From contig CBDAOI010000002.1 of assembly GCA_965198005.1 (NCBI GenBank), positions 448,001-512,000 on the forward strand: a DNA stretch of 64,000 nucleotides, written 5' to 3'. This DNA comes from Spirochaetia bacterium. GTDB lineage: Bacteria > Spirochaetota > Spirochaetia > SZUA-6 > Bin103. A program made the translations under genes and the position numbers. Positions 9,570 through 39,501 of this stretch are shown one piece after another (position 1 is the first letter of the stretch; each line of letters begins with the position of its first letter). Under the pieces are notes generated by a model, which was not told the DNA's origin, ran no database searches, and worked only from the letters and a program-made list of their open reading frames with translations.

Positions 9570-9676
9570 ACGTAACTCCGCATGTTTGGTTTGAGAGTAT
9601 CGAGTAACGAATTGCCGGGCCCTGCCTACTCTCGCGCCCGCAACGCAGGCGGCCAGACAGAGACGGCAATCGGGGC

Positions 9677-9712
9677 TCACGCCCCGCGCGTGCGCGGTTC
9701 TTTGAGTATCAC
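9677..9712 (-). CDS. 11-aa uORF MILKEPRTRGA
   Basis: AGGAGGT four nt before GTG; same-length homolog at 38854-38889. Confidence 0.5.
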   Translation of the reverse strand: MILKEPRTRGA

Positions 9713-9968
9713 TTGCACCTCCTGTGCGCCGGGATACCGGCAGGGTTGTAGTGGATGCGATTCACCGGCAAACGCCGGCGGTCGATTCTGCGACGGTGAG
9801 TTGGGGGGCGAGGCTCCAGGACCGTTGCGGTGGTCGGTGATCGAAGGTGGACTGAGCCGGCGCCACGCGCAGCCGGGCGTGACCCCGGTGCTGAAGGCGA
9901 AGGCGCCCGCGGAGCGATCAGCCCGTGCGGTTAGTGACCTACAGGATGATGTATCAAAAGCTGTGTGT

Positions 9969-9979
9969 GGGGGGGGGGG
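9969..9979. repeat. G11 tract (C11 on sense strand) in SBP1 leader
   Basis: direct count. Confidence 0.85.
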
Positions 9980-10161
9980 CGACTCCTCACCATTAAGCAA
10001 GCCCGCCGCGAGCTGATTTTCAGCAAATCTCGGCGAGCGGCTGTCAGGGGAACAGAGTGTCATAAGCGTTGACGTGTTATAAGTCACTCAAGCCCTCCGC
10101 AGGTGAGGCACAGCCATACCCAGATGTAGTCGCGATGTCGCGATTGACTGGATCCCACCCT

Positions 10162-10190
10162 ATCATAACCTCCGCTCCCGAGGACGTCAA
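10162..10190 (-). promoter_or_regulatory. sigma70-like promoter upstream of SBP1
   Basis: TTGACG-17-TATGAT. Confidence 0.65.
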
Positions 10191-10294
10191 CCACGAATCG
10201 GCCCAGCAATTCTCGGTGAACGGCAGTCGATGGCCTGAAGAGACAGTCTGGAGGGGGCCCCACCATTTGCCAACCCCCGCCGCGAAAGGATTCC

Positions 10295-10312
10295 GGGGGG
10301 GGGGGGGGGGGG
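10295..10312. repeat. G18 tract (C18 on sense strand)
   Basis: direct count. Confidence 0.85.
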
Positions 10313-10331
10313 CAAGGGTAGGACGCGCCGG

Positions 10332-10388
10332 TTACGCTGCCGCTAACCGGTGGCAGCTCTGAGTAGTGTTTTCAGCCATCTTTTGCAT
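10332..10388 (-). CDS. SBP leader ORF MQKMAENTTQSCHRLAAA, premature stop
   Basis: homologous to leaders starting at 17620, 28734 and 39447; TAA where two homologs have CAA/CAG. Confidence 0.45.
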   Translation of the reverse strand: MQKMAENTTQSCHRLAAA

Positions 10389-10410
10389 CCGTTCAAACCT
10401 GAGACTTTTT

Positions 10411-10439
10411 ACTATACCACCCCTGCGGCAACCAATCAA
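10411..10439 (-). promoter_or_regulatory. leader promoter
   Basis: TTGATT-17-TATAGT with extended TG, about 23 nt before leader ATG. Confidence 0.6.
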
Positions 10440-10707
10440 CAGGAAAAACTGGCGAATTGAAGCTTTCTTGAGATTTCTTTCGGGCAGCCGCGGCAGCCGA
10501 GAGCCCCTCGCGGCGCCGACTCGGACGCATCGCCCCTCCGGAGCCGTCATTCGCCGGCGATGTGGCCGTCCGCAGGCCGTTCACCGTCCACGTCGGCCTC
10601 ACAGCGGCCCGCTGAGGGCCTTCCAGCCCCTCGGGGGTAAGCCTGGGGTACCCCCTGCAACACCCGTCAACGCCGATTCCCGGCACCGCTGAGGGTTGGC
10701 AATACCC

Positions 10708-11193
10708 CTAACGCGCCAGTCTCGGATCGTACCGGAAACTGGAGATGGGGCCGGTTGTGATGGCGCTAAAGTCGGCGTGCTCGGGATTGACGATGAAGTT
10801 GGTGTCGCCCCGGACTACGGCGCTCGGTACCTGCAGCACGGCAGACCATGCGTGATCGATCCACCGGTCGCCGATTTCCTGGGTGGCGGGATGCAGGCTC
10901 GGTTGCGCCCACTCCGGTGGCAACTGGTCTTCACCGATGTGCTTCACTAGGCGTTCCGGGATGAACACCGGCATCGTTCGATACGTTTCCAGGACTCTTT
11001 CAGCTCCCAGGTGAACCAGCAACTCCATGCCGGCAAGCGCCAAGCTGTCGCCGAGATAGACTACCGCGCGCCCAATACTGTTCCAGCGCCCACCGTAGCG
11101 CCGGGCCCCCTCGCCCGACATCATTTGCTCAGCGGTTTGAGCGAATTCCGGCGCGGCCAGACGCCACGCGGCCAGACGCCACGCGGTAATCAA
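10708..11193 (-). CDS. RES-domain toxin (NAD+ phosphorylase family)
   Basis: WRL, GGRWNS.G..VVY, ELLVH, VPSAVV, NFIVNPEH. Confidence 0.9.
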   Translation of the reverse strand: MITAWRLAAWRLAAPEFAQTAEQMMSGEGARRYGGRWNSIGRAVVYLGDSLALAGMELLVHLGAERVLETYRTMPVFIPERLVKHIGEDQLPPEWAQPSLHPATQEIGDRWIDHAWSAVLQVPSAVVRGDTNFIVNPEHADFSAITTGPISSFRYDPRLAR

Positions 11194-11729
11194 CTGAACA
11201 CGCCATGCCGTAGCCGGCCGATGAGGTGCTCCACATCGCGTGCGCCCGTTTCCGTCGACGCACGCTCAAGCGGCGTCTCCCGGTCCAGGAGTTCATGCCG
11301 TGTCCGCAGCCACCGCTCGGCGGCGCCCGCGTCGCCCCGCATCATGGCCACGGCCATTGCCTCCAGGCGAGCGATACGCACCAACCGGTCCGACTCCGAT
11401 GGCGTTAACGTGCCGCTCCGCTTTCTGCGGGCAAGGGTCGATGCCGGGATACCGATAACCTCCGCCAGTTCTTGTTGCGATCCGCCGACAGCAGCCACCA
11501 GTTCATTGAGCATGGAGAAGGGCAGGCCGTTGCGGACCATCTTGAGCACACCACGGCCATTCAAGAGAGCGAACAGGCCACCGTTCGCCGCGTGCTCCGC
11601 GACGTACTGCGTGGCCGGCTCCTCAACGCCCCGCGTGGTGGGCTCGGAAACCGGCTGTCGGGCGGGCATGACGCCGGGGCGCGGTTCCGGCACTCCATCA
11701 GGCATTGATTTCTCCATCTGGTTCTCCAT
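11190..11729 (-). CDS. Xre/MbcA/ParS-family antitoxin
   Basis: GIPASTLARRK, ESDRLVR, WL...LDRETPL, LIGRLRHGVFS; overlaps RES start. Confidence 0.9.
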   Translation of the reverse strand: MENQMEKSMPDGVPEPRPGVMPARQPVSEPTTRGVEEPATQYVAEHAANGGLFALLNGRGVLKMVRNGLPFSMLNELVAAVGGSQQELAEVIGIPASTLARRKRSGTLTPSESDRLVRIARLEAMAVAMMRGDAGAAERWLRTRHELLDRETPLERASTETGARDVEHLIGRLRHGVFS

Positions 11730-11899
11730 CTGGCACTTTCCCTATTACCGTATGCAACAAGGTACCCCGACGAGGCCGTTTCCCACAACCCCCGCGAGCG
11801 TGCCGGGGCGTTGATCGCGGAACGCACTCGTCGCGCCCTCGTCGACCGCACTCTGCGCGGTTTGCATGGTGTTCCGGGTCACGGAATGGCCTTGCCGCC

Positions 11900-12553
11900 T
11901 CATTCGTAGCGAATCCGCGGGTCCAGCGACGCGTACACCAGATCGGTCAGCAGGCTGACCACCACCACCGTGGCGAAGAACAGGTTTATCGCCGACACCA
12001 CCGGGTAGTCGCGGTCGTTGAGCGCATCCAGCATCAGCCGCCCCAGCCCCGGCAGGTTGAAGATGTTCTCGATGATCACCGAGCCGCCCACCAGAATCGG
12101 AAGCTGCATGCCCACCAGCGTCACCACCGGGATGATGGCGTTCTTGACCGCGTGGCGCAGAATCACCGAACGCTCCAGCAGCCCCTTGGCCCAGGCGGTC
12201 CTGACGTAGTCCTGCCTCAGCACCTCCAGCATCATGGTGCGCGTCATGCGCATGGTGCTGGCCGACAGGTAGGTGCCGAGGATCAGGCTGGGGATCAGGA
12301 ACATGCCGAGGTTGGTGCCGCGCAGGAGGATGCCGCCGATCCAGCCGCCGTACTGCACGTGGATCGGCAGGTCGAGGCCGAGCCTGCGCTCTACGAGCTC
12401 CCGGTCGACTTCGCCGCCAGTGTCCAACATACGGCTGGCCATGATGTCGATGACGTCGCCGGGGATGAAGCGGACCGACAGGAACACCAACACGCTCAGG
12501 ATGAACAGGGTGGGGACGACCAGCAGCAGCAGCCGGATGATGTAGGCTCTCAT
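11900..12553 (-). pseudogene. permease B with in-frame ~100-codon deletion
   Basis: LLRGT joined to NLGMF; 217 aa versus 318 aa for the close paralog at 24770-25726. Confidence 0.85.
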
Positions 12554-12568
12554 GTCTTCGTGGCAAAT

Positions 12569-12600
12569 GGGCGCCGGGAAGCTCGAGGCTCCCGGCGCCC
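12569..12600 (-). terminator. GC-rich hairpin, copy of 15325-15363
   Basis: GGGCGCCGGGA...TCCCGGCGCCC. Confidence 0.6.
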
Positions 12601-12703
12601 TTCTCTGCAGACAGAACTGGCTCGTGCAGCTCGGCGTCTGCGCCTCGTGGAGTCGCGCAGCGACTCCTTAACCCAACGGCGTAGTCGTTGGGTCAGAACC
12701 CCA

Positions 12704-12826
12704 GGCGACCGCGTTGACGCGGACGCCGTGCTCTCGCAGCTGCGGCGATCTGGTTGCCGACCGCCTCTAGGGACTCGCCCTCACCTGCCAGCCAACAGGC
12801 TTGGTTTCTCGTCGCGTATAGTCATC
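12704..12826 (-). pseudogene. three-piece remnant of a second SDR copy
   Basis: MTIRDEKPSLLAG | GEGESLEAVGNQIA | QLREHGVRVNAVA, each matching 2649-3494. Confidence 0.75.
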
Positions 12827-12830
12827 GCGC

Positions 12831-13223
12831 TTACAGCAGTTTGTCTACGGCAACCAGGATCGCCACAGCGGCAGCGATGGCGGCGCCCAAGCGGATCGTC
12901 AGCCGCTCCTGGAGCTTGCTGATCTCGCCGCGCAGGCTGGCCTCCAGGTGATTCATGTCGCCACGCAGGCTGGCCTCCATCTGATTCGTCTCGCCGCGCA
13001 GGGTTGCCAGCTCTTCCTTGGTGGCAAGGGTTGCGATCTCGCGGTGGACGCCCTGGAGCTCGCGGTGGACGCCTGCGATGTCGTCCTTGGTAGCGAGGTT
13101 CTCGAACATGCCCTCGGCAAAGGTCGACACCAGCACCCGCGCCTTGGTTTCATCGAAACCCGCTTCCTTTTGCAGCCGGGTGGCCGCCTTGAGGGTGTCG
13201 AACGCTACCGCCACGCCGGCCAT
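12831..13223 (-). CDS. DUF1640/CCDC90-like coiled-coil protein
   Basis: FDTLKAA..L...GF, LATKDDI / LATKEEL repeats, C-terminal TM helix. Confidence 0.8.
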   Translation of the reverse strand: MAGVAVAFDTLKAATRLQKEAGFDETKARVLVSTFAEGMFENLATKDDIAGVHRELQGVHREIATLATKEELATLRGETNQMEASLRGDMNHLEASLRGEISKLQERLTIRLGAAIAAAVAILVAVDKLL

Positions 13224-13406
13224 TCTATCCCCCTCGTGGCGATCGGTACACCATCATTTCTCACTTCGCTCATGTCGTAGTACAACGTAGCCACGTGCGC
13301 TGGCGCTTCAACGAGCGAGACCGGCGATGTGAGGGACCACCCGGAGGCGGTCTCCGAGCTGCGCAAACGCTGTAGAAGACCGAGTGAGGCCGGTAGCTGA
13401 TCGCTA

Positions 13407-13755
13407 CTACGCCGACGTCGCGCCGCTGGCAGCGAGACGACCGCTCCCACCCCTGAGCCGCGGATCGAGCAAGTCCCGCATGGCATCACCCAACATGTTG
13501 AAACTGTACACCACGATCGTCAGGCACAGCCCCGGCCACAGCGCCAGCCACGGCGCCTGCTCCATGAACCGCCGCCCCTCCCGGCTGAGCATCCCTCCCC
13601 AGCTCGGCACCTTGATGGGCAACCCGAAGCCGAGGAAGCTCAGCGACGCCTCGGCCAGGATCACGCCGCCGACGTTGATGCTGAAGACGATGATCAGCGG
13701 CGCCACGATATTGGGCAGGACATGGCGCACCAGAACCTGTCGCGTCGGCGCGCCG
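13407..13755 (-). pseudogene. permease C 3' fragment
   Basis: nearly identical to 3' third of 34939-35826. Confidence 0.85.
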
Positions 13756-13756
13756 G

Positions 13757-13838
13757 CTCCGGCAGTTTATCGGGGAACCGGTGGTTACGGTCCTGGACGT
13801 GGATGACGAAGCGGCATCGCTCTACGCCGAGGTGCCAG
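13757..13838 (+). pseudogene. possible PIN-domain toxin scrap
   Basis: LRQFIGEPVVTVLDVDDEAASLYAEV resembles a central PIN segment. Confidence 0.35.
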
Positions 13839-13840
13839 GG

Positions 13841-14036
13841 ATGAGGTTTCAGGAATTTGTCCAGGATCAGGTGTTCTCTCCGACGCTCATCGCCGACGGG
13901 CTGCGCACCACCAAGTCCAAGATCGCCGGGACGCTGGGCCTCGGCAAGGAGGCCTTCACGCGCGCATCGCGGGTCCGGGCCCGTAAGACCCAGGTCCGGT
14001 TGCGCCAGATGCTGGAGATTCTCAATCGCGTGGAAA
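13841..14036 (+). pseudogene. truncated Xre/DUF2384-like antitoxin
   Basis: FSP..IADGLRTTKSKIAGTLGLG.....R..R....KTQVRLRQMLEILNRVE; C-terminal domain missing. Confidence 0.6.
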
Positions 14037-14375
14037 CGGCATGTGCAGCAATTCCGCACCGGCGAGCCGAGCCGAGCTGGCGATGATCAAGTCGGTCGCT
14101 GGCACGGTGACCCCGAGAGTTCTCAACTCGCGCCCCATTGCGACGGCAAGTTCGAACACGGGGCCGGTGAGCTCAAGCCAGTGGCATCCCGACAGATCCG
14201 ACCTCACGTTCAGAGAGTCCACGTCCCGCGTGGCGTAGGCCACCATCTCTACCTCTATGATGCCGTTGGTCGCCGCCCGGTTGTCACGAATCGCGGAGAA
14301 AACAAGGGCTCTGACCTCCTCCGATCCACCCCGACGGTAGTACTCGATCCACGCGGAGCTATCGACCAGGATCAC
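14022..14375 (-). pseudogene. vapC: VapC PIN toxin, 3' end replaced
   Basis: MILVDSSAWIE, E.E, DLIIA; the final acidic motif after LLH is lost at the junction with the Xre fragment. Confidence 0.8.
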
Positions 14376-14578
14376 GGTTGGCGACGCAACTGCGCAAGTG
14401 CCTCCTGGTCCAGCTCGAGGTCCAACCGCCCCGCGCGGCTCAGCGCCGCGTTGCGCCTCCAGGCCTTGACCGCCTCCCGAAGAGCCAACTCGATCGTTTC
14501 TCGCTTCGTGGACGCACGCAGCGCTTGCCGGGCCTCTTCGATCAGGTGGTTGTCAATCGTAACAGTTATGCGACTCAT
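14372..14578 (-). CDS. vapB: VapB antitoxin
   Basis: MSRITVTIDNHLIEEA...TKRETIELALRE; AGGAG RBS; overlaps vapC start. Confidence 0.85.
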   Translation of the reverse strand: MSRITVTIDNHLIEEARQALRASTKRETIELALREAVKAWRRNAALSRAGRLDLELDQEALAQLRRQP

Positions 14579-14639
14579 CGGGCTCCTCATGAGTCATCAC
14601 GATGGCACACCATCAGGATACACCAATGATCTACACCGA

Positions 14640-15312: not shown

Positions 15313-15324
15313 GTCTTCGTGGTA

Positions 15325-15363
15325 GAAGGGCGCCGGGAAGCTCGAGGCTCCCGGCGCCCTTCT
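15325..15363 (-). terminator. hairpin between SBP2 and permease B
   Basis: GAAGGGCGCCGGGA...TCCCGGCGCCCTTC. Confidence 0.65.
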
Positions 15364-15447
15364 CTGCCCGACAGAACGAGCGCGAAAGCGCTCGTGGGAC
15401 CCGCCTTTAGGCGGGGTCCTTGCTGAGCCAATGGCGCAGCCGATTCA

Positions 15448-17268
15448 TCAGAATCCCATTTCTCTCTTCAGATCCTGATCGATCCAGAGGCGGGCGAATA
15501 TGGCATGATGGTTCAAGTCTCCCAAGTTGGATTCACCGCTAAAACCCTTGACCCACGCCTGGCTCGCCAGAAACCGCGGCGCCAGGGGACCCCATATCTG
15601 CACGTGCTCCTTCATCAGGGCCATTTCAAACTCTCTATTTGCTTTTTGCTGCGCCTCCGCAGTCGTAGCGGCTTGAAATGCATCATAAGCGGCGGTCAGC
15701 TCAGGGGTCTCGAGTCCGCCCACGAGTGCGTTGACGTGCTGGTTGGGCTTAAAAAAGCCGATTATTGTAGCGGGGTTCACAGCAAACGCCATATCGCCAG
15801 TGATCATCTCAAAGTCAAAGCTCGTTCTATTGGCGACCAGGGTCCCAGTGTCGACAATATTGACCGTTACGTCAACGCCAATATCAGCCATGTACTGGAG
15901 AGCCACTTCTATATATCCCAAGTCTATGACATCGCGGTGCTGCAAGGTAGTCTTGAATCTCACGCCGTCCGCGCCGCGCGGATATCCAGCCTCATCCAGG
16001 AGCTTCTCAGCACCTTCCTGATCATACGAGTAGTATCCCTTGAGCTCTGCGGGCCATTCCTGAAACGGGGTGTAATACGGCTTGACGGCGACCAAACCAA
16101 TGGGTTCCCACTTTGCATAACCGCCAAAGTAGGTGTCATTAATCGTCTGGAGGTCCAGTGCCATCTGCAATGCGTGGCGCACTCTGACGTCGTCAAAATG
16201 GGGCTTGCTAACGTTCATGGCGATACTCGCAGTGGAGCGACCGAAAGTTGGCGATGTCACGATTTCTGGGTTAGTCCGGTTGAGGCTCTGTGCCACGTCG
16301 AGCGTCGAAATAGAGACCGGTCCCGCGCTATGTATCATATCCACCGCACCAGTGCGTAGCGCCGATATACGGGTTGCTGCTTCGGCCATAAAGAGCGCTC
16401 TTAACCGGTCAATATAGGGCAGGCGGTTCTCCGGGTGTTTTTCGTCGAAGCCCCAGTAGTCAGGATTCCTGCTAAACGTCTTGGAGACGCCGTCCACATA
16501 GTCAGTCAGCATAAATGGCCCCGTGCCGACCACGTTCTTCCAGTCCTTGTAGTCGCCGTATTGCTCGATTACGTCCGGGGGTAACACCCAGTGCATGGGA
16601 CCGACGATGATTGTCCTTAGCGCACTGGGGGATGGCCTCGTCGTCTTGATGACAACCGTATGCTCGTCGGTAGCCTCTATCGATTCCCATGGCTCATTTG
16701 CAAACCCGTAGGCCACTGCCAGTTCGGAAGGTTCAGTGAAGCCGCTGCCCAGGCCCAAATAGCGGTGATACGTGTGTTCTACATCCTTGGCAGTCAGCTC
16801 CCGACCGTTTACCAGGCGGCTGGCCTCACTATCCGGATTAAGGGCGTAGTGTACGCCCTGACGGATGTGGAAGACGTACGTCAGTGGGTCGGGCGCTTCC
16901 CAGCTTTCCGCCAGGTTCCCCGTGAAGGCAGACAAGGGTGGGTAATCCGCTGTAAAGTCGAATTCTTCCCGATCTAGTGCCCAGTCCCCGTAGGCGAGCT
17001 TTTCATTTACACCGTCTATGAGCCAGCTCGCTTCGAGGCCAGCATAAAAAGGATCTTGATTGTCTCCTGCTCTGACATAGGGATAGGTCAATGTCCCACC
17101 ATACTCCGGCGCCGTCACCATCTTGCCGGTGGCGGGGTCCATCACCATTTCCTTTTCCATCGCCGCGGCCGGTTGCTCTTCCCCGGCCGGGCTTGCCCAC
17201 AGGCCGGTCGCGGCCAGACCGAAACCGATCAGTACCGCCAGGATCTTTCGCAAGATTGCGTATTGCAT
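15448..17268 (-). CDS. ABC substrate-binding protein, family 5 (SBP2)
   Basis: AGGAG then MQYAILRK signal peptide; PEYGGTLT, GTGPFML, LDEAGYPRGADG. Confidence 0.92.
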   Translation of the reverse strand: MQYAILRKILAVLIGFGLAATGLWASPAGEEQPAAAMEKEMVMDPATGKMVTAPEYGGTLTYPYVRAGDNQDPFYAGLEASWLIDGVNEKLAYGDWALDREEFDFTADYPPLSAFTGNLAESWEAPDPLTYVFHIRQGVHYALNPDSEASRLVNGRELTAKDVEHTYHRYLGLGSGFTEPSELAVAYGFANEPWESIEATDEHTVVIKTTRPSPSALRTIIVGPMHWVLPPDVIEQYGDYKDWKNVVGTGPFMLTDYVDGVSKTFSRNPDYWGFDEKHPENRLPYIDRLRALFMAEAATRISALRTGAVDMIHSAGPVSISTLDVAQSLNRTNPEIVTSPTFGRSTASIAMNVSKPHFDDVRVRHALQMALDLQTINDTYFGGYAKWEPIGLVAVKPYYTPFQEWPAELKGYYSYDQEGAEKLLDEAGYPRGADGVRFKTTLQHRDVIDLGYIEVALQYMADIGVDVTVNIVDTGTLVANRTSFDFEMITGDMAFAVNPATIIGFFKPNQHVNALVGGLETPELTAAYDAFQAATTAEAQQKANREFEMALMKEHVQIWGPLAPRFLASQAWVKGFSGESNLGDLNHHAIFARLWIDQDLKREMGF

Positions 17269-17398
17269 GTTTGACTCCTGATACTCGTGATATTCGAGAG
17301 TGCTGATTCCACTGCCCATCCCTCGCCCACTCTCGACGTACACCTGCAATCGCAGGTGCCCGGAAAGCGAGGGCGCCAGCCCGCGTTCCGAATCAGTT

Positions 17399-17620
17399 CT
17401 ACATCCGGCACCTCCTTGAACGCGTGCGCGCACCTGATCCGGGAGCGCCGCGCGGGGCGCACTCAGCCCGAGCGCTTAGTGCTTCTCGTATAGTTGGGGG
17501 GGGGGGGGGGGGGGCGAACGGACGGGATGCGCCGGAGCGGCACCCCGGGCGGCGGCTGAGGGGCGCCAGTAGCGTCAACCCGTGGCAGGGCTGGATTGCG
17601 TAGTCAGGCATCATCGGCAT
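17399..17620 (-). CDS. SBP leader ORF with Pro7 run (73 aa)
   Basis: MPMMPDYAIQPCHGL...APPPPPPPTIREALSARAEC...M*. Confidence 0.45.
   Translation of the reverse strand: MPMMPDYAIQPCHGLTLLAPLSRRPGCRSGASRPFAPPPPPPTIREALSARAECAPRGAPGSGARTRSRRCRM
17496..17514. repeat. G19 tract (C19 on sense strand)
   Basis: direct count; homologous site at 28021-28026 is G6. Confidence 0.85.
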
Positions 17621-17643: not shown

Positions 17644-17673
17644 AGTTTGGCACACGCGCGGCACGGCAGTCAA
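17644..17673 (-). promoter_or_regulatory. leader promoter
   Basis: TTGACT-18-CAAACT; aligns with 28743-28771. Confidence 0.5.
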
Positions 17674-24728: not shown

Positions 24729-24737
24729 GGGCTTCCC

Positions 24738-25861: not shown

Positions 25862-27691
25862 TCAGAACCCCATTTCTCGCTTCAGATCCTGGTCGATCCA
25901 GAGGCGGGCGAGGATGGGATGATAGGTCAGGTCTCCTAGCGAGTATTCGCCATTATAGCCCTTGACCCACGGATTGTTCGCCTGAAACTGTGGCGCCAGA
26001 GGACCCCAAATCTGCATGTGTTGCTCGAGCACGAACATATTATACGCTTTCGCTGCCTCGAACTGCTCCTCCACGGTCGTAGCACCATAAAAAGCATCGG
26101 AGGCGGCGTCCAACACGGAGGTGTCGATTGCACATGGGTCGCTGCAGGCCAAGTATTCGCGGGGAAACGCATTGCTATCGCGATGAGTCTGCATGGCCCA
26201 GACAGCGTTCGGGTGGCCCATGTCGCCAGTGGCCATTTCATACGCGGTATCTGCCTTGGCAGCCACCCAAGTCCCCGTGTCGGCAATACGGGTCGTTACA
26301 TCAACGCCAATATCAGCCCAGTACCCGGCGGCGACTTCCGTATAGCCCAAGTCGATGACGTCTCGGTGCAAGTACTCTGCCGTAAATCGAATTCCGTCCG
26401 CGCCGCGCGGATAGCCTGCCTCATCCAGGAGCTTCTCGGCACCCTCCGGGTCATACCTGTAGTATTGCTTGAGCTCTTCTGGCCACTCTTCAAATGGGAT
26501 GTAATACCCCTTGGCGCTAATCCACGCAGGGTTTTCCCAGTCTGAAAAACCGGCAAAGTAGGTATCGTCAATCGTCTCCAGGTCCAGTGCCATTTGCAGT
26601 GCGTGGCGCACCCTGACGTCGTCAAATGGCGCGTTGCGAATGTTCAGAGTAAAGACCTGAAATGCCCGCTGGTAGTAACTGTACACCTCGATTTCCGGGT
26701 TGGTCCTCTGCAGGCTCCTTATCACGTCCATGTTTCCTATGTCGGCGACGCCGGCGTGTTGTATTATATCAATCTTACCCGTACGCAGTGCCGAGATACG
26801 GGTTGCTTCCTCTGCCATAAGGGGGGCCCTTATCTCGTCAACATAAGGCAAGCGGTTCTCCGGGTATTTCTCGTCGTAGTCCCAGAAGTCAGGATTCTTG
26901 GTAAAGGTCTTAGAGACGCCTTCGACATAGTCAGTCAGCATGAGGGGCCCAGTGCCGACCACGTTCCTCCAATCCTCATAGTTGCCGAAATGCTCGATTA
27001 CGTCGCGGGGCAATATCCAACTCTGACTTTCACCGAGGATCGGCTGTAGCGCATCGAGGTATGGCTCAGTGAGCTTCATAACAACCGTATACTTGTCGGT
27101 GGCCTCTATCGATTCCCATGGCAGGTTGAACGTGGGGCCGGCCTGAACGGGAGGTTCGGTGAAGTCCCCCTGAGCAGTTTGGCGCTGATAGCTATAGACG
27201 ACATCATCCGCGGTTAGCTCCCTACCGTTTACCAGGCGACTGGCCTCACTGTCCGGATCCAGAGCGTAGTGAACGCCCTGACGGATGTGAAAAACGTAGG
27301 TCACCGGATCGGGCGTCTCCCAACTTTCCGCCAAATTCCCGGTCAGGACGTGTGTAGGAACGAAATTGTCTGTCCAGTCAAATACTTCCCTGTCTATTGC
27401 CCAGTCACCGATGGCGAGCTTCTCATTGACACCGTCTATGAGCCACCCCGCTTCGAAGCCAACCGCAAGGGGGTCTACATTGTCGCTTACTCTTCCACCC
27501 CAGCCGTAGGTCAATGTCCCGCCATACTCCGGCGCGGTCACCACCTTGCCGGTGGTGGGGTCCATCACCATTTCCTTCTCCATGGCGGCGGCGGGCTCCT
27601 CTTCCCCGGCCGGGCTTGCCCACAGGCCGGTCGCGGCCAGACCGAAACCGATCAGTACCGCCAGGATCTTTCGCAAGATTGCGTATTGCAT
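25862..27691 (-). CDS. ABC substrate-binding protein, family 5 (SBP3)
   Basis: AGGAGG then MQYAILRK; same motifs as SBP2. Confidence 0.92.
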   Translation of the reverse strand: MQYAILRKILAVLIGFGLAATGLWASPAGEEEPAAAMEKEMVMDPTTGKVVTAPEYGGTLTYGWGGRVSDNVDPLAVGFEAGWLIDGVNEKLAIGDWAIDREVFDWTDNFVPTHVLTGNLAESWETPDPVTYVFHIRQGVHYALDPDSEASRLVNGRELTADDVVYSYQRQTAQGDFTEPPVQAGPTFNLPWESIEATDKYTVVMKLTEPYLDALQPILGESQSWILPRDVIEHFGNYEDWRNVVGTGPLMLTDYVEGVSKTFTKNPDFWDYDEKYPENRLPYVDEIRAPLMAEEATRISALRTGKIDIIQHAGVADIGNMDVIRSLQRTNPEIEVYSYYQRAFQVFTLNIRNAPFDDVRVRHALQMALDLETIDDTYFAGFSDWENPAWISAKGYYIPFEEWPEELKQYYRYDPEGAEKLLDEAGYPRGADGIRFTAEYLHRDVIDLGYTEVAAGYWADIGVDVTTRIADTGTWVAAKADTAYEMATGDMGHPNAVWAMQTHRDSNAFPREYLACSDPCAIDTSVLDAASDAFYGATTVEEQFEAAKAYNMFVLEQHMQIWGPLAPQFQANNPWVKGYNGEYSLGDLTYHPILARLWIDQDLKREMGF

Positions 27692-28064
27692 CTTTGCCTC
27701 CTGATACTCGTGATATTCGAGAGTGCTGATGCCACTGCCCATCCCTCGCCCACTCTCGCGGTACACCTGCAATCGCAGGTGCCCGGAAAGCGAGGGGGAC
27801 AGCCCACGTTCCGAATCAGTTCTCCATCCGGCACCTCCTTGAACGCGTGCGCGCACCTGATCCGGGAGCGCCGCGCTGGGCGGTGGTCGGCGACGCGGCG
27901 CAGGTGAGTGACCGGCAACGCCAGCGGCCCGCCAGGCAGGCGAACGGGGTAGCGGTAGTGCAGGCGCGCGCGGGGCGCGCGGAGCACTCAGCCCGAGCGC
28001 TTAGTGCTTCTCGTATAGTTGGGGGGACATAAGCGCTAACTTGTTGTGGGGGCCTACAGGGGCC

Positions 28065-28262
28065 ATGCATGACTTTACTGTGCGACCGTACCACGGACGT
28101 GCGACTCGGATCAACCAGCCGCGTCGAAGAAATCTGCCAACTCATGGCCCTACGGTGCGACCGTACCACGGACCCGCGACTCGCGTCAACCAGCCAGATC
28201 GAAGTAACCTGACAACTGGGACAGCCGGCGCCGTGGCGGCTCAGCCAGCGCCCGCGAGATAG
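28065..28262 (+). CDS. small ORF with two 25-aa repeats (75-bp direct repeat)
   Basis: TVRPYHGRATRINQP.. / TVRPYHGPATRVNQP..; several repeat differences are synonymous in this frame. Confidence 0.35.
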   Translation: MHDFTVRPYHGRATRINQPRRRNLPTHGPTVRPYHGPATRVNQPDRSNLTTGTAGAVAAQPAPAR

Positions 28263-28313
28263 CGCCCCAAAACCGCCGCCGGGGCGCCGCTTTTGGCCCA
28301 TCCCGTCCAACCG

Positions 28314-28346
28314 CTAGGAGTCTGTCGCAATCCGACAGACTCCTAG
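28314..28346. mobile_element. IS-end scar / mini-element
   Basis: CTAG-GAGTCTGTCG-caatc-CGACAGACTC-CTAG: perfect 14-bp inverted repeat at the break of an SBP gene. Confidence 0.55.
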
Positions 28347-28388
28347 GACCAACGCAATCGCGAAGGTCCTTGCAAAAAATATCCTCAT
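28347..28388 (-). pseudogene. 5' stub of a sixth SBP
   Basis: MRIFFARTFAIALVL; upstream 28389-28500 nearly identical to the SBP4 UTR (38722-38820). Confidence 0.75.
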
Positions 28389-28506
28389 CGTTTCTTCCTT
28401 GAATGTTATTTCGAGAGTATTGCGTAGCGGATTGCCGCTCCCTGGCTACTCTGACGCCCGCAACGCGGGCGCGCCCGCCAACGCGGGCGACCAGTCTGAG
28501 TCAAAT

Positions 28507-28734
28507 TCACTGAAAGCGCGCGGCGACCATCCTGTCAACGACTCGGACGTCATCGAACGTTATCGCCAACCGACCACTGCGCTGACTGTCATGATGGCGC
28601 TCCATCCGCATCTGATCAACCCGAATCACAGCAGTTCTCGGTGAACGGGTAGTGGTGGTGGTAGGATGCACCGGCTGCGTTACCGCTAACCGGTGGGAGC
28701 GCTGGGACGTGTCGTCACGCATCACGGTGCCCAT
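28507..28734 (-). CDS. SBP leader ORF with Thr5 run
   Basis: MGTVMRDDTSQRSHRLAVTQPVHPTTTTTR... Confidence 0.45.
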   Translation of the reverse strand: MGTVMRDDTSQRSHRLAVTQPVHPTTTTTRSPRTAVIRVDQMRMERHHDSQRSGRLAITFDDVRVVDRMVAARFQ

Positions 28735-28742
28735 GAGAACGC

Positions 28743-28771
28743 AGTCTGCCGCACGCGCGGCAAACAGTCAA
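28743..28771 (-). promoter_or_regulatory. leader promoter
   Basis: TTGACT-17-CAGACT. Confidence 0.5.
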
Positions 28772-32554: not shown

Positions 32555-32635
32555 TCACCCCGAGGTCAGTGGTGTTGTTCCCCGAGCAGCCTGCCGACGG
32601 TCGGTGGGGAGCGGGTTCACGGCTCGTGTGGTGTG
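32555..32635 (+). pseudogene. fragment of a second SLOG-like copy
   Basis: SVVLFPEQPADGRWGAGSRLV matches 30940-31005. Confidence 0.6.
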
Positions 32636-33385: not shown

Positions 33386-33389
33386 GTGT

Positions 33390-33543: not shown

Positions 33544-33582
33544 TCAGTAAGTAGTACGTGTCTGCGCATTCTGCAGTCGCTG

Positions 33583-34530: not shown

Positions 34531-34555
34531 GGGCTTCCCTCATTGCCTCATTCCC

Positions 34556-34902
34556 TCATTCGTAGCGAATCCGCGGGTCCAGCGAAGCATACAGCAAATC
34601 GGTCAGCAGGTTGACCACCACCACCACCGTGGCGAAGAACAGGTTCACCGCCGACACCACCGGGTAGTCGCGCTCGTTGAGCGCGTCCAGCATCAGCCGC
34701 CCCAGCCCCGGCAGGTTGAGGATGTTCTCGATGATCACCGAGCCGCCCACCAGAATCGGCAACTGCATACCCACCAGCGTCACCACCGGGATGATGGCGT
34801 TCTTGAGCGCGTGGCGCAGAATCACCGACCGCTCCAGCAGCCCCTTGGCCCAGGCGGTCCTGACGTAGTCCTGGCGCAGCACCTCCAGCATCATGGTGCG
34901 CG
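34556..34902 (-). pseudogene. permease B 3' fragment
   Basis: begins abruptly at RTMMLEVLRQD. Confidence 0.85.
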
Positions 34903-34938
34903 GGCGGGTCCGGGCACCGTACGTGACCTTGCTCAGGA

Positions 34939-35826
34939 TCAGCCGGCGTCCCCGGCGCCGAGACGGCCGCCGCCGCGCAGCCGCGGATCGAGCAAGTCCC
35001 GCATGGCATCACCCAGCATGTTGAAGCTGTACACCACGATTGTCAGGCACAGCCCGGGCCACAGCGCCAGCCATGGCGCCTGCTCCATGAACCGCCGCCC
35101 CTCCCGGCTCAGCATGCCGCCCCAGCTCGGGACCTTGATCGGCAGCCCGAAGCCGAGAAAGCTCAAGCTGGCCTCGGCCAGGATCACGCCGCCGACGTTG
35201 ATGCTGAAGACGATGATCAGCGGCGCCACGATATTGGGCAGGACGTGGCGCACCAGGACCTCGCGCGTCGGCGCGCCGACCGCCCGGGCGGCCAGAAAAA
35301 AATCGTTGCCCTTGGTGGCCACCACGGCGCCTCTGACCACGCGCGAGCCGCCCACACCGCCGGCGATCCCGAGCACCACGATGATCTGTAGCAGGCCCTG
35401 CCCCGCGACCGACATGATCGTGAGCAGCAGCAGCAGTCCCGGGAACGCCATCCAGGCATCGACGAAGCGCTGCACCGCCAGGTCCAGCTTGCCCCCAATG
35501 AATCCGGACGTGCCGCCGATCAGGGTGGCGACCACCACGTTCAGCGTGGTCGCCGCCAGACCGACGACCAGCGAGATGCGCGCCCCGAACAGCAGCCGGC
35601 TCAACAGGTCGCGGCCCAACTGGTCGGTCCCCAGCAGATGGCGGGCCGACGGGCCCTGCAGCCGGTCTGCCAAGTTGAGTTGATCGAAGGGATAGGGGGC
35701 CAGAGCATCGGCAAAGATCGCCAGCAGAATCAGGATCAAGATGACGATCCCGCTGGCGATCCCCAGGGGCTTCTGCCGCCACAACCTGCCGAAGAAATCG
35801 GCAAACGGCCCGCGCGCGTCAGTCAT
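34939..35826 (-). CDS. ABC permease C
   Basis: full DppC motifs. Confidence 0.93.
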   Translation of the reverse strand: MTDARGPFADFFGRLWRQKPLGIASGIVILILILLAIFADALAPYPFDQLNLADRLQGPSARHLLGTDQLGRDLLSRLLFGARISLVVGLAATTLNVVVATLIGGTSGFIGGKLDLAVQRFVDAWMAFPGLLLLLTIMSVAGQGLLQIIVVLGIAGGVGGSRVVRGAVVATKGNDFFLAARAVGAPTREVLVRHVLPNIVAPLIIVFSINVGGVILAEASLSFLGFGLPIKVPSWGGMLSREGRRFMEQAPWLALWPGLCLTIVVYSFNMLGDAMRDLLDPRLRGGGRLGAGDAG

Positions 35827-36823
35827 ACCGCACCCTCGGGTCCAGATAGGAATAGAGCAGGTCGATCAGGAGATTGAACAGCACTACGGCGGTGGCGAAG
35901 AACAGGTTGATCCCGGAGACCACCGGGTAATCTCTGTTATCGAGTGCAGTCAGCAGGAGACGACCCAGCCCGGGCAGGTTGAAGATGTTCTCCATGATGA
36001 CCGAGCCACCGATCAGGATCGGCAACTGCAGGCCGATCAGGGTCACGACCGGGATCAGTGCATTCTTGACCGCGTGCCGCATGACAACCACCCGCTCCCT
36101 GAGACCCTTCGACCAAGCGGTCCTGATATAATCTTGCCTGAGCACCTCCAGCATCATGGTGCGCGTCATCCGCATGGTGGCGGCAGCCGAGGCCGTCCCC
36201 AGAATCAGGCTGGGAACAATGAACACGCCGAGATTTCCGAGCGGATCTTCCGTGAAAGAAATCAGCTCCATTGGTGGCGTCCAGCCCCACCAGAGTGTCG
36301 GGTATATCATGACCATAATTCCCAGCCAGAAATTAGGCGTCGCCAGGCCGATGATGGCGATGGAGCGCCCCGCGTAGTCGGCGGCGGTATCCTGCCGAAT
36401 CGCCGAGTAGATACCGACCGGCAGGGCTATCACGAGCCCGATTACAATTGCCATGACACCAAGCTGAATGGTTACCGGCAATCTGCCCACTATCTTCTCC
36501 TCTATCGTAAAAGGGCTCATCAGTGATTCACCAAGCGTGCCCTGGAGGAGACCGTTGAAGTGAGACTCATTGGTAACAAAGTCGGGTGTGGGCAACACTC
36601 CTATCCAGCGTCCATACTGCACGTGGACGGGCACGTCCAATCCCAGAATACGCTCCACAGCGGCACGGTCAATCTCGGCGTAGCCACCCGCCACTTCCAA
36701 CCTGCTTTGCATTGCGCCTATCACATCGCCGGGGAGGAAGCGCACCGAGAGAAAGACCAGGATGGTCAACACAAACAGGGTGGGCACTATCAGCAATAAC
36801 CGCCTGATGGTATAGGCTCTCAT
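35819..36823 (-). CDS. ABC permease B
   Basis: full DppB motifs. Confidence 0.93.
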   Translation of the reverse strand: MRAYTIRRLLLIVPTLFVLTILVFLSVRFLPGDVIGAMQSRLEVAGGYAEIDRAAVERILGLDVPVHVQYGRWIGVLPTPDFVTNESHFNGLLQGTLGESLMSPFTIEEKIVGRLPVTIQLGVMAIVIGLVIALPVGIYSAIRQDTAADYAGRSIAIIGLATPNFWLGIMVMIYPTLWWGWTPPMELISFTEDPLGNLGVFIVPSLILGTASAAATMRMTRTMMLEVLRQDYIRTAWSKGLRERVVVMRHAVKNALIPVVTLIGLQLPILIGGSVIMENIFNLPGLGRLLLTALDNRDYPVVSGINLFFATAVVLFNLLIDLLYSYLDPRVRYD

Positions 36824-36899
36824 GTGCTACACCTTGTCGTTCTACAAGCTGTCATTGAAGGTATGAAGGTTTGGATTCCGCGCTCCGCTCGGAATGAGC

Positions 36900-36938
36900 A
36901 AGGGAGCCGGGAGGTTTGAATCCCCCAGCTCCCTCTTT
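36900..36938 (-). terminator. hairpin after SBP4
   Basis: AGGGAGC.GGG...CCC.GCTCCCT. Confidence 0.55.
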
Positions 36939-36939
36939 C

Positions 36940-38721
36940 CTAACGACCCATTGCCTCCTTCAGCTCACTATCAATCCAGAGGCGGGAATGGGTGGTCCAC
37001 TGGTCGCCTACCGCCCAGTGGCCAATTTCACCGCTATATCCTGTGAGCCACGGCTGGGCCACCATGAAAGTTGGACTTCTGGGACCCCATATCTGCCAGT
37101 GCTGGTCTATTACGTACATATCTGCCTCTACAATCAGCCGCTGCTGCTCCTCAATGGTATTAGCGGCCAGGGCGGCGTCAACCGTGGCGTCCAACTCAGG
37201 CCACTGATGTAACCAGCGATTAGATGTTGAATCCGATCGAAGGAGGCCTACGTAAGCGACAGGGTCATACAGGCTGCCCCCAATGGAACTTATCATGCCT
37301 TTATTAGTACGCCCGGACATTTCCTGATATTCGGCGCTGGTAATTACCTCAATCTCAACATCGACGCCAATCTCAGCCCAGTAGGCGACCGCTATTTCTG
37401 AAAAGTCCAAGACATGATATTGGCTCTGACTCAAGACGGTCTTGAATCTCGTGCCGTCCGCGCCGCGCGGATACCCAGCCTCATCGAGGAGCTTCTCGGC
37501 AGCTTCCGGGTCATACCTGTAGTATTGCTTGACCTCTTCGTCCCACTCCTCGAAGGGGATGTGATACCCTTTCACCCCTTGCCACCCGAAAGGTGTCGCA
37601 TCTGCCTCACCCTTCCATAACGTAGCCACCGCAGTTTCGTTGTCCAGCGCCATCTGCATCGCCCTGCGCACGTTGATGTCGTCAAAGGGCGGCACGCGCA
37701 GGTTAGGAGCAAAAGAATTCTGCGACCGAAACAGAATCGTGTGCACCGCGATTTCGGGGTTGGTCCGCTTGAGGCTCAGTACCCCGTCCAAATTAATGAG
37801 ATAGTGTATGTAATCAAGCGTGCCTGAGCGTAGTGCCGCCATAATTGTTGCTTCCTCTCCCATTGCAAGTACCCTTACCTCGTCAACGTAGGGCAGGCGG
37901 TGATCCGGGTACTTTTCGTCGAAGCCCCAGTAGTCAGGATTCTTGACATAGGTGAAACTGCTCCCATCGACTACGTCAGTCAGCTCAAAGGGTCCGGTGC
38001 CGACCACGTTCCGCCAATCCTGCACGTCGCCGTATTGCTCGATGACCTCGCGGGGCATTATGAAAGTAGAGTTGTGGCCGAGCAAGATCACCAGCGCATC
38101 GAGGAATGGCTCCTTCAGCTTCATAACAACCGTCCATTTGTCTGTGGCCGTTACCGATTCGAATGGGATGCCGGTGACTTGGGCGGCAAAGGCGGTCGGT
38201 CCGGCGTCGGTGAACTCGCCCAGACCCAACATACGGTGATAGTTCCATTCAACGTCATAGGCATCGAACTCCCGACCGTTCATCGGTGCCTTGTCGTGCC
38301 AGTTAACGCCCTGGCGGATGTTGAAGATAATCGTCGTATCGTCGGGCGTTTCCCAGCTTTCCGCCAGCCTCCCAATCATGACCGACAGGGGGTAGTAAGC
38401 CGCCGTAAGGTCCCATACGTCTCGATCTATTGCCCAGTTCGGGATGCCTAGCTTCTCATTCACGCCCGAGAGTATCACGTGCGGCCAACTGCCGAAATAG
38501 GGGTCACTTGGTGCCTGAGTCCAACCGGCGCCCGCCCACGCGGTTATTGTCCCGCCGTACTCCGGCGCGCTCACCACCTTGCCGGTGGAGGGGTCGGTCA
38601 CATACTTCTTGTCGGCGGCGGCTGCCGGCTCGTCTTCTGCTCCAGCGGCCCACAGGCCGGTTGCGGTCAGGGCCAGGACCAACGCAACCGCGAAGGTCAT
38701 TCTAAACAGGATTTTCATCAT
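36940..38721 (-). CDS. ABC substrate-binding protein, family 5 (SBP4)
   Basis: AAGGA then MMKILFRMTFAVALVL; PEYGGTIT, GTGPFEL, LDEAGYPRGADG. Confidence 0.92.
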   Translation of the reverse strand: MMKILFRMTFAVALVLALTATGLWAAGAEDEPAAAADKKYVTDPSTGKVVSAPEYGGTITAWAGAGWTQAPSDPYFGSWPHVILSGVNEKLGIPNWAIDRDVWDLTAAYYPLSVMIGRLAESWETPDDTTIIFNIRQGVNWHDKAPMNGREFDAYDVEWNYHRMLGLGEFTDAGPTAFAAQVTGIPFESVTATDKWTVVMKLKEPFLDALVILLGHNSTFIMPREVIEQYGDVQDWRNVVGTGPFELTDVVDGSSFTYVKNPDYWGFDEKYPDHRLPYVDEVRVLAMGEEATIMAALRSGTLDYIHYLINLDGVLSLKRTNPEIAVHTILFRSQNSFAPNLRVPPFDDINVRRAMQMALDNETAVATLWKGEADATPFGWQGVKGYHIPFEEWDEEVKQYYRYDPEAAEKLLDEAGYPRGADGTRFKTVLSQSQYHVLDFSEIAVAYWAEIGVDVEIEVITSAEYQEMSGRTNKGMISSIGGSLYDPVAYVGLLRSDSTSNRWLHQWPELDATVDAALAANTIEEQQRLIVEADMYVIDQHWQIWGPRSPTFMVAQPWLTGYSGEIGHWAVGDQWTTHSRLWIDSELKEAMGR

Positions 38722-38853
38722 CGTTTCTTCCTTGAAAGTTATTTCGAGAGTATTGCGTAGCGGATTGCCGCTCCCTGGCTCCTCTCGGGCCCGCAACGCA
38801 GGCGGCCAGTCAGAGTCGAATGTGTGACGCGCGCGGCGGGTGACTCATCGGGC

Positions 38854-38889
38854 TCACGCCGCGCGCGCGTAGGGTTCTTTGAGTATCAT
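38854..38889 (-). CDS. 11-aa uORF MILKEPYARAA
   Basis: AGGAGGT four nt before ATG; homolog of 9677-9712. Confidence 0.5.
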   Translation of the reverse strand: MILKEPYARAA

Positions 38890-39447
38890 TTGCACCTCCT
38901 GGAGCGCCGGTAAAACCGGCAAGGTTGTTGTAGCGACCCACGGCGGCCCCGAGTCATGCGCCGCCGCCCGCGAGGGCGGGGCTGAAGCGTTGACAGGGGT
39001 ACGTGCGGGCCGGGTATCGAGCCGCGAGGAGGCAGGCGGAAGGCCACACCCGGGACGCCGATATCGGGAGGCGTCACGGGACCCGGTTGGGATCCGCGTG
39101 TGCCCCATCACGCAAACACCGACCGCTCGGTCGACGTCGGGACCTGCGTCACAACGCCACGCGGGGCAGTGGGCGGTCCGCATGCCGGTTCGGCGATGGA
39201 CCGAGCCGACGCCACCGATAGCTACGGCGGTGGTGAAGGCAACGGCGTGCGCGGGGTCGCGTACGGGGCGATCAGCCGGAGCGCTTAGTTGCTTCTCGGC
39301 TTCTCGGTTCTGAAAATTGGTACAGGGGGGTGGCAGGGTACAGAGGGGGGGGGGAGACAGGGGGGGCAGAATAGCGGCAGAGCGCATCGGTTGCGCTATC
39401 TTCAACCGGCGGCAGCGCTGGGTACTGTCGTTACGCCTCATTCGCAT
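38854..39447 (-). CDS. SBP leader ORF, Pro-rich, in frame with the uORF
   Basis: MRMRRNDSTQRCRRL..QP...LPPLSPPPLCTLPPP...QLSAPADR. Confidence 0.4.
   Translation of the reverse strand: MRMRRNDSTQRCRRLKIAQPMRSAAILPPLSPPPLCTLPPPCTNFQNREAEKQLSAPADRPVRDPAHAVAFTTAVAIGGVGSVHRRTGMRTAHCPAWRCDAGPDVDRAVGVCVMGHTRIPTGSRDASRYRRPGCGLPPASSRLDTRPARTPVNASAPPSRAAAHDSGPPWVATTTLPVLPALQEVQMILKEPYARAA
39325..39366. repeat. cluster of G runs (G6, G3, G10, G7)
   Basis: direct count; G-quadruplex-compatible on the + strand. Confidence 0.8.
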
Positions 39448-39472
39448 CCATTCCCACCCGAAGCCCGCAGCC

Positions 39473-39501
39473 ATCGTCGCACACGCACAGCCTGCTGTCA
39501 A
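39473..39501 (-). promoter_or_regulatory. leader promoter
   Basis: TTGACA-17-GACGAT, about 26 nt before leader ATG. Confidence 0.5.

Follow-up and report, generated by a model that had tools for sequence, protein, structure and literature searches.

Modular, poly-C-bearing 5′ leaders of family-5 substrate-binding protein operons in a Spirochaetia genome: a candidate translation-coupled frame switch

Introduction

What do the long leaders upstream of four paralogous transporter genes of a spirochaete do, and do they serve those four genes only? The question is raised by a stretch of 64,000 nucleotides (here called the window) from contig CBDAOI010000002.1, positions 448,001-512,000, of the Spirochaetia bacterium assembly GCA_965198005.1, which comprises 4.89 Mb in four contigs. 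Four genes for family-5 substrate-binding proteins (SBPs) lie on the minus strand of the window: SBP1 (7764-9569), SBP2 (15448-17268), SBP3 (25862-27691) and SBP4 (36940-38721). All four match PF00496 with E-values of 1e-58 to 1e-69, and each is the first gene of its own operon with Opp-type permeases. Members of PF00496 are typically peptide-binding.

The initial annotation of the window had placed a leader upstream of each gene (here L1 to L4) with an open reading frame (ORF) start, a low-complexity tract and a shared segment, and had proposed a leader-controlled switch that selects which SBP of the array is expressed. The ORF starts, tracts and shared segments of all four leaders were recovered where they had been placed, on the minus strand. 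The device is not particular to this four-gene array, however: it is genus-wide, and this genome alone contains 133 proximal leader modules. We propose, tentatively and at slightly below an even chance, that the four stretches belong to a family of modular 5′ leaders that is specific to the lineage and serves family-5 SBP (ABC importer) operons throughout the genome, and in which a translation-coupled attenuator would be combined with a slippage-prone frame switch.

Leader modules recur throughout the genome in a constant order

A blastn search of the four leaders against their own genome returned 721 high-scoring segment pairs with sharp, recurring boundaries; the homology of the four leaders therefore goes far beyond chance. 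Profile searches with 13 hand-cut modules gave 730 matches, or 659 after overlap removal, comprising 144 copies of D, 85 of A, 66 of P2, 60 of B, 50 of P1, 48 of A2, 41 of C, 35 of T, 34 of G2, 32 each of P1b and P3, 18 of X1 and 14 of U0. The SBP-proximal modules, which we designated anchors, were the 85 copies of class A and the 48 of class A2. An open frame of at least 450 codons lay behind 70 of the 85 A copies, and a near-identical signal peptide opened nearly all of these frames. PF00496 matches in the genome numbered at least 133 (133 of 226 candidates scored), and such an expansion of SBP_bac_5 in 4.9 Mb is an extreme number of paralogues.

The leaders are assembled from about 12 co-oriented modules, whose order upstream of the 133 anchors was constant: (D)n, P1 or P1b, (X1-P2), (P3)n, B, C, (G2), and A or A2. 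Each leader module was optional and lay on the SBP strand, with a single antisense module in all 133 architectures. Mobile repeats resembling miniature inverted-repeat transposable elements (MITEs), BOX or REP were rejected as an explanation on the basis of this fixed order and orientation, although 125 of the 659 matches lay away from any anchor.

Leader modules were present in seven of ten genomes of the same genus, and module B was 91-95% identical between species. In 30 other genomes searched outside the genus, the intron part alone gave matches, in three of 13 genomes of the sister genus. Modules were found at 42 of 80 loci encoding relatives of SBP4, and all 42 were titled Spirochaetia except for one bin titled 'bacterium'. 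No leader module was found at the Dehalococcoidia-titled and Deltaproteobacteria-titled loci among the 80, or in two other 'bacterium' metagenome-assembled genomes (MAGs; L065 and L072) that encode the closest relatives of SBP4, at 88-89% amino-acid identity. Because modules are absent at SBP4 relatives outside the lineage, the leaders are a lineage-specific addition that was not inherited with the SBP gene. A 77% relative of SBP4 without leader modules occurs in a Dehalococcoidia-titled MAG, and the pattern suggests that SBP genes may have been exchanged between co-resident sponge symbionts.

Promoter-bearing heads meet the leader body at C tracts

The heads of the leaders carry promoters and start codons. 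In 62 of 82 copies, P1 and P1b heads showed TTGAC/T, 13-16 nt, TGn and NANNNT, with the start codon mostly 21-22 nt on, compared with 0.15 for shuffled sequences. The sigma70-like promoters of the initial annotation were thus borne out as a family pattern, but a strict scan for E. coli-type sigma-70 promoters passed only two, both in L1. P2 heads start with GTG and possess a GGAGGG sequence and a promoter of their own, and the P3 head has a promoter and an ATG that directly abuts the tract. The head ORFs, as read from the sequence, lack a strong Shine-Dalgarno (SD) sequence. D units, each with a -35-like TTGACA and a head-like start, form tandem arrays of up to eight units with a period of mostly 122-135 nt (for example C4:2001000-2001950 and C4:2048620-2049900), in which promoter-like units are stacked upstream of the main head.

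The joint at the end of a head is a run of 4-28 C residues, in many cases with (CA)n behind it; some heads have no C run, as in the ACC repeat of L3. Module boundaries coincide with the C tracts, which lie downstream of the -10 element and the head start codon, inside the ORF. Phase variation by a homopolymer in the promoter spacer, of the tpr or porA type, was discarded, as the tracts are neither between the -35 and -10 elements nor at the transcription start site (TSS).

The genome contains 160 C/G runs of at least 8 nt versus 25 A/T runs. Of 95 C/G runs of at least 10 nt, 61 were located within 1.5 kb upstream of an anchor, all 61 with C on the sense strand; a further 17 lay beside modules in sense, one in antisense, and 16 elsewhere. 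Leader territory makes up about 4% of the genome. Runs of at least 15 nt numbered 44, against approximately 0.4 expected in an estimate from base composition. Three pairs of tracts had both 80-nt flanks at least 95% identical, and two of these pairs differed in tract length (18 versus 9 and 10 versus 8 nt, with flanks 97-100% identical). A search of metagenome contigs with an exact-flank pattern around the C19 tract of L2 gave no matches. Among the public runs listed as containing the region, nine are on record as RNA; those that are named are sponge metatranscriptomes, and the rest have coded organism names. Likely DNA runs contain the region as well. The public RNA and DNA runs were represented by Logan contigs of a few hundred bases that break at repeats and C tracts, and are uninformative on tract length. 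Read-depth bins were high over SBP genes, intermediate or low over the leader and, in RNA, near zero over isocitrate lyase, values made unreliable by cross-mapping of paralogues.

Within 30 nt of its start, module B has TAA and TGA in two frames, and the third frame is open. Directly behind these traps the module is 42% C with a C/G ratio of 1.48. A C-rich, G-poor stretch in this position, in a genome that encodes rho (Rho_RNA_bind match of 117.6 bits), makes module B a candidate Rho site. The gene for elongation factor P (EF-P), efp, is also encoded.

The proximal modules contain a mini-ORF and covarying RNA stems

Module A opens with AGGAGGT, a strong SD belonging to the 11-codon mini-ORF (MILKEPHARAA) that comes next. 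The 5′ arm of a hairpin, H1, is made up of the final four codons of the mini-ORF together with its TGA. H1 was found in 62 of the 67 unique A copies; its folding energy averages -32.8 kcal/mol, and it contains an inner tetraloop hairpin. The tail of H1 is enriched in T, mostly with 3-5 T in 9 nt. H1 is followed by H2, which is sometimes duplicated, and then by H3, a GAGAGU...ACUCUC stem that encloses conserved unpaired G-rich motifs. In many A copies a small hairpin puts the SD of the SBP gene in its loop and the AUG in its stem. Module A2 shares H2 and H3, which show compensatory differences, and its mini-ORF is either a start-stop (ATG-TAG) or three to eight codons long. The unpaired conserved motifs GGCNAGGGA and GGCA, together with the covarying H2 and H3 stems, are common to both classes.

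RNAalifold applied to the 67-copy alignment of module A yielded a poor consensus because of gaps, and was replaced by cross-species alignments A1 and A2. In a 43-sequence multi-species alignment H2 was 83% paired and H3 92% paired, and in each stem four of seven pairs were changed on both sides. None of 500 shuffles reached the observed pairing or covariation score; in a control, one slid alignment (-2) equalled the covariation score, but with 58% pairing. No Rfam covariance model matched the sense strand of the leaders, the sole match being RF02005 on the opposite strand. Attenuation of the trp/his type was rejected, because a strict scan of the four leaders found no terminator-like site on the sense strand and the consensus fold showed no alternative pairing.

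One frame is open above chance, and its peptide appears unconstrained

The distance from the start of module B to the mini-ORF was a multiple of three, and free of stops, in 26 of 38 loci, which had 15 distinct lengths of 168-438 nt. In the 38 loci the open frame contained 0.55 stops, compared with 2.3 and 3.05 in the other two frames. When unique segments were pooled from four species, 38 of 52 segments and 23 of 37 distinct lengths were in frame; the three other species alone gave 10 of 14. The median open stretch upstream of the mini-ORF was 352 nt versus 82 and 18 nt in 76 loci, and 351 nt versus 114 and 168 nt in 27 loci of relatives. Newly arisen stops, summed over modules B, C and D, amounted to two events in the open frame versus 18 in the other two. 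As in the pil1 locus of Streptococcus gallolyticus, to which we return below, a repeat tract follows the promoter and start codon; the head ORF was in phase with B and read through into the body in 28 of 48 loci. Counted by distinct head/distance combinations, it was in phase in 21 of 40. The in-frame tracts encode two to nine prolines.

Other results weigh against a translated leader that depends on its frame. The binomial p-value for head phase, 3e-4, overstates significance, as do such p-values in general here, because the copies are related by descent. Codon-position entropy in module B was 0.465/0.447/0.383, with no third-position excess and no constraint at the amino-acid level, and its G+C at codon positions 1/2/3 was a flat 68/62/69%, unlike the SBP and permease genes (59/42/66% in the SBPs). 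Single alignment gap blocks had no periodicity of three (35/35/30). Spacings in the D arrays (n = 94) were 0, 1 and 2 modulo 3 in 38, 12 and 44 cases, and so do not preserve frame. Of 12 loci in relatives, just 5 had the head in frame with B, and a second set of relatives (L055-134, n = 15) had open stretches of 174/75/180 nt with no clear frame excess. A strict scan of the sense strand of the four leaders found no canonical intrinsic terminator. Finally, the assembly is a long-read MAG in which the lengths of homopolymers may be wrong, and such errors would change all frame assignments.

A real small protein encoded by the leader was rejected, as neither codon-position asymmetry nor an excess of third-position variability was present, and without amino-acid-level constraint the leader 'ORF' may be no gene at all. 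The D arrays were likewise rejected as one long ORF, since their spacings are not multiples of three. Preservation of frame among homologues, which had been proposed as a check in the initial annotation, shows as a bias in net lengths but not in individual gap blocks. Its caveat that ribosome transit may matter more than the peptide agrees with a frame that is kept open without amino-acid constraint. Because the frame is open above chance and its peptide is not conserved, the sequence evidence favours ribosome passage as the selected feature.

Leaders of the four SBP genes

All coordinates in this section are on the minus strand unless stated. L1 contains two heads. The P1 head has a promoter at 10411-10439 (TTGATT, 17 nt, TATAGT, with TG) and an 18-codon ORF, MQKMAENTTQSCHRLAAA, at 10332-10388 (ATG at 10388, TAA at 10334-10332). 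Beyond it a C18 tract (10295-10312) marks, by the blastn boundaries, the joint of head P1 and module X1. The leader ORFs had been described as leading into the tracts, which is the case for L2, L3 and L4, but the L1 ORF stops before C18; its TAA is absent from the other listed copies of the head subfamily, which read into the tract. A paralogue of C18 with 97-99% identical flanks carries C9. The P2 head, one of the 66 copies in the genome, has its promoter at 10162-10190 (TTGACG, 17 nt, TATGAT). From its GTG a long frame (9677-10087) runs through a C11 tract and a B-like body to the stop of the mini-ORF (VILKEPRTRGA*), with 375 nt open upstream of the mini-ORF start. The C11 tract with (CA)3 (9969-9979) is the joint of head P2 and the body. 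Module A of SBP1 (9572-9723) comprises SD, mini-ORF, a shortened hairpin, H2, H3 and the SBP ribosome-binding site. This second head, with its frame open from 10087 to 9677, is probably the functional head of SBP1.

The L1 unit of 512 nt is 93-95% identical to approximately 14 copies, and the adjoining body, proximal module and SBP gene are more diverged. A RES toxin and Xre-MbcA-ParS antitoxin pair is encoded directly upstream of L1 (10708-11729). Since the homology of the L1 unit to its paralogues stops at 10651, the intron insertion point of other copies, this cassette may have replaced the distal part of the unit.

As had been noted at the outset, the leaders of SBP2 and SBP4 are open from their ATG to the mini-ORF stop, over 73 and 197 codons, respectively. 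In L2 the promoter lies at 17644-17673 (TTGACT ... TG-C-CAAACT), and the ORF (17399-17620, ATG at 17620) passes through a C19 tract (17496-17514) to an ATG-TAG start-stop mini-ORF. Module A2 of SBP2 (17261-17458) has its SD and start-stop inside a hairpin, followed by H2, H3 and the SBP ribosome-binding site. In L4 the promoter lies at 39473-39501 (TTGACA, 17 nt, GACGAT with TG-C), and the ORF (38854-39447, ATG at 39447) passes through a C7/C10/C6 cluster (39325-39366) to the mini-ORF stop at 38856-38854. Modules B and C occupy 39088-39302; B is C-rich, and at its start the two other frames contain TAA and TGA. The ORF then crosses an antisense group II intron remnant of 185 nt (38911-39095, plus strand; RF02005, 65 bits). 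Module A of SBP4 (38715-38900) contains the SD AGGAGGT, the mini-ORF (38889-38854), H1 (~38827-38870), H2 (~38789-38804) and H3 (~38746-38786), and the SBP starts at 38721.

Judged by its modules, L3 is a composite of two leaders, and its head at 28734 is part of a decapitated upstream leader. This distal head (28507-28771) consists of a promoter (28743-28771) and a 75-codon ORF (ATG at 28734) that runs through ACC x3 (28654-28662) into a D unit. At 28256-28525 the two-hairpin module T is joined to an orphan piece of module A, which still carries 24 codons of an SBP signal peptide as a remnant (ATG at 28387). The remnant (28313-28387) ends in a TAG inside the 11-bp hairpin of module T, a module with 35 copies genome-wide, and resembles an SBP gene that was decapitated and then became a terminator-like spacer ahead of a new promoter array. 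The head of SBP3 itself, in part a reading of the sequence by eye, comprises two P3 promoter units and an ATG-C6 (28021-28203, ATG-C6 at 28030), and its frame ends at the TAA trap. It is followed by a B-like body and module A2 with the mini-ORF MEN* (27684-28020). The body contains the 102-nt insert relative to L2 that had been described in the initial annotation; the difference is exact, with 157 versus 55 nt between shared anchor points, and the insert is in frame.

Group II introns and other neighbours of the leaders

Module G2 matches the group II intron family RF02005, and its full copies contain a reverse transcriptase (RT) ORF. RF02005 has 37 matches in the genome, of which the window holds the remnant in L4; in paralogues this site is occupied by full RT-bearing copies. 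A 525-residue RVT_1 ORF is present in at least 15 copies, which are 1.93 kb long and 98-99.8% identical (for example C4:1380852-1382792), and another RVT_1 ORF has 483 residues. The intron family looks active from these sequences. In at least six leaders its main subfamily is inserted antisense in front of the U0-P1 head, at a distance of approximately 232 nt, and paralogues show the empty sites. A second subfamily is inserted antisense exactly upstream of the mini-ORF SD in five leaders. Of five loci with a full or nearly full antisense intron in the leader, which are probably not independent copies, four keep one frame open through the intron for 1149-2046 nt, ending at or near the mini-ORF; two of the frames begin at the ATG of the head, two have an ATGA overlap at their end, and RT was confirmed in one locus.

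Because the tracts sit exactly at module joints and near-identical introns are abundant, RT template switching was considered as the origin of the mosaics. It is speculative that the tracts are scars of template switching with untemplated addition and that the leader mosaics were retro-assembled.

On the distal side of the U0-P1 head the sequence continues into another non-coding repeat of more than 1 kb, 94-99% identical among copies (C4:1382786-1384088, with over 10 further places). Its ORFs have no Pfam match, and the repeat is itself a second intron target site. Nucleotidyltransferase genes of the AbiEii type and DUF2204, which are toxin-antitoxin or defence-like, lie between the transporter operons at 755-1411 and 40804-41592 on the plus strand. 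G+C is lower in the SBP genes (bins of 0.55-0.57) than in the genome (0.66).

Discussion

The best reading of the leaders, though one in which our confidence stops a little short of even, is a translation-coupled attenuator with a slippage-prone frame switch, analogous to pil1. A ribosome that starts at the head would read a long, sequence-unconstrained upstream open reading frame (uORF) to its end while travelling with RNA polymerase. It would cover the C-rich stretch where Rho may load and melt H1, so that transcription reaches the SBP gene. If the length of the tract puts the head out of frame, the ribosome would drop off at the TAA/TGA trap about 300 nt earlier, and transcription would stop or the RNA go unused. 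With termination-reinitiation at ATGA overlaps, the mini-ORF may serve as a relay. C tracts mutate very readily, and each of the ~130 operons would therefore be an independent, heritable and reversible ON/OFF locus. Read in frame, the tract yields poly-proline, which could make expression dependent on EF-P or proline supply as well. In the window, the model would place SBP1 (through the P2 head and C11), SBP2 (through C19) and SBP4 in the ON state, and SBP3, whose ATG-C6 head runs into TAA, in the OFF state.

The model can be taken further, to a genome-wide contingency regulon in which ~130 uptake operons of this uncultured, sponge-associated spirochaete are toggled independently by poly-C slippage in a long translated leader whose peptide is irrelevant, and in which the heads, each a promoter with a start codon, are interchangeable and attach to a shared body at the tract. 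This extension is possible but doubtful.

A non-adaptive origin would account for much of the same material. The leaders could be leftovers of duplication and recombination among ~130 paralogous operons, in which modules, including promoters, were shuffled by microhomology at the tracts, the tracts themselves being recombination joints or slippage-grown junk and the open frame an inheritance from an open ancestor. The coincidence of module boundaries with tracts agrees with this, as do the lack of peptide-level selection and of three-periodic gap blocks, the close identity of the L1 unit to its copies next to more diverged neighbours, composite leaders such as L3, and the introns and toxin-antitoxin cassettes that litter the region. 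Such a mosaic is nevertheless unlikely, because orientation and order are strict, module B is highly conserved between species, net lengths are biased to multiples of three with 23 distinct in-frame lengths, derived stops are rare in the open frame, poly-C is confined to the sense strand, and H2 and H3 covary.

Translation of the heads might also be unnecessary. If poly-C and module B recruited Rho or a C-binding protein, only the mini-ORF would have to be translated, and H1-H3 would bind a global regulator or set the processing or stability of the mRNA. The C/G ratio of module B, the presence of rho, the conserved unpaired motifs and covarying stems in both anchor classes, and a strong SD at the mini-ORF with none at the head ORFs are all compatible with RNA-level control of this kind. 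It is an improbable account, as it leaves unexplained the in-frame bias of net lengths, the phase of head and body, and the frames that stay open through antisense introns. A purely physiological attenuator, analogous to mgtP of the Salmonella mgtCBR leader, is very unlikely. In-frame poly-proline would then sense EF-P activity or the supply of proline or prolyl-tRNA and tune peptide uptake, as the in-frame majority of heads, their proline codons, efp and a cargo family that is typically peptide-binding might suggest, and differences in tract length would be evolutionary noise rather than a switch at work within populations. However, 20 of 48 heads are out of frame, tracts range from 4 to 28 nt and differ even between near-identical copies, and some heads, as in L3, have ACC in place of a C run.

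If the attenuator with a frame switch is correct, a symbiont would diversify its nutrient-uptake repertoire cell by cell, and phase variation, a means of immune evasion, would be extended to metabolic bet-hedging. Surface antigens of pathogens are already known to be under stochastic switches; what would set the present case apart is the placement of such switches in translated leaders, and their scale of more than 100 transporter operons. The leaders would also form a natural library of uORF-dependent attenuators with swappable promoters, and a case in which selection preserves an open reading frame but not its protein. For annotation pipelines and long-read assemblies, the predicted frame and state of each locus hang on homopolymer calls.

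Control of leaders by Rho and a uORF is established for E. coli tnaC and for Salmonella mgtA/mgtL, mgtCBR/mgtP and corA, and proline codons act as sensors in mgtL and mgtP. The leaders described here share with these systems a leader ORF adjoining a C-rich, G-poor stretch, in a genome with rho and efp. They differ in that the uORF is very long and sequence-unconstrained and in that a mutable homopolymer adds a candidate genetic switch. Modular dispersed repeats are represented by the BOX elements of S. pneumoniae, REP/ERIC and Correia elements, which likewise consist of composite, reshuffled non-coding modules in many copies. The present modules, in contrast, are co-oriented with one gene family in a fixed order, carry promoters, start codons and ribosome-binding sites, and have neither terminal inverted repeats nor a random insertion pattern.

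In the part of the published account drawn on here, the poly-G tracts of Treponema pallidum tpr and tp0126 and the tracts of Neisseria porA and opc lie in or just upstream of the promoter or TSS and alter initiation (PMC7864442). Both the tpr system and the present one are spirochaete cases in which G/C homopolymers of variable length precede paralogous families of surface or transport genes; measured against the same part of that account, the tracts here differ from tpr, tp0126, porA and opc in lying after the -10 element and the start codon, inside an ORF. Searches of the literature on leader-peptide and poly-C phase variation, sponge spirochaete transporters and uORF polyproline, supplements excluded, returned no description of this system.

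The nearest parallel is pil1 of S. gallolyticus. There, in the portion of the report used here, destabilisation of a premature terminator by the ribosome depends on how many repeats the leader-peptide gene contains (PMC3894217). In both systems, as far as that portion goes, a simple-sequence repeat in a leader ORF would set the reach of the ribosome; in the present leaders the long form would reach and destabilise a stem-loop before the structural genes, as it does in pil1. Compared with what the same portion describes, a GCAGA repeat controlling pili, the present leaders have a C tract with CA repeats and a transporter cargo; their putative uORF has 70-200 codons, H1 is no canonical terminator, and there are ~130 loci with interchangeable heads. 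The leaders would thus represent a known kind of control, uORF-dependent attenuation with a repeat switch, and appear unusual in their scale, their modularity and an open frame without peptide constraint.

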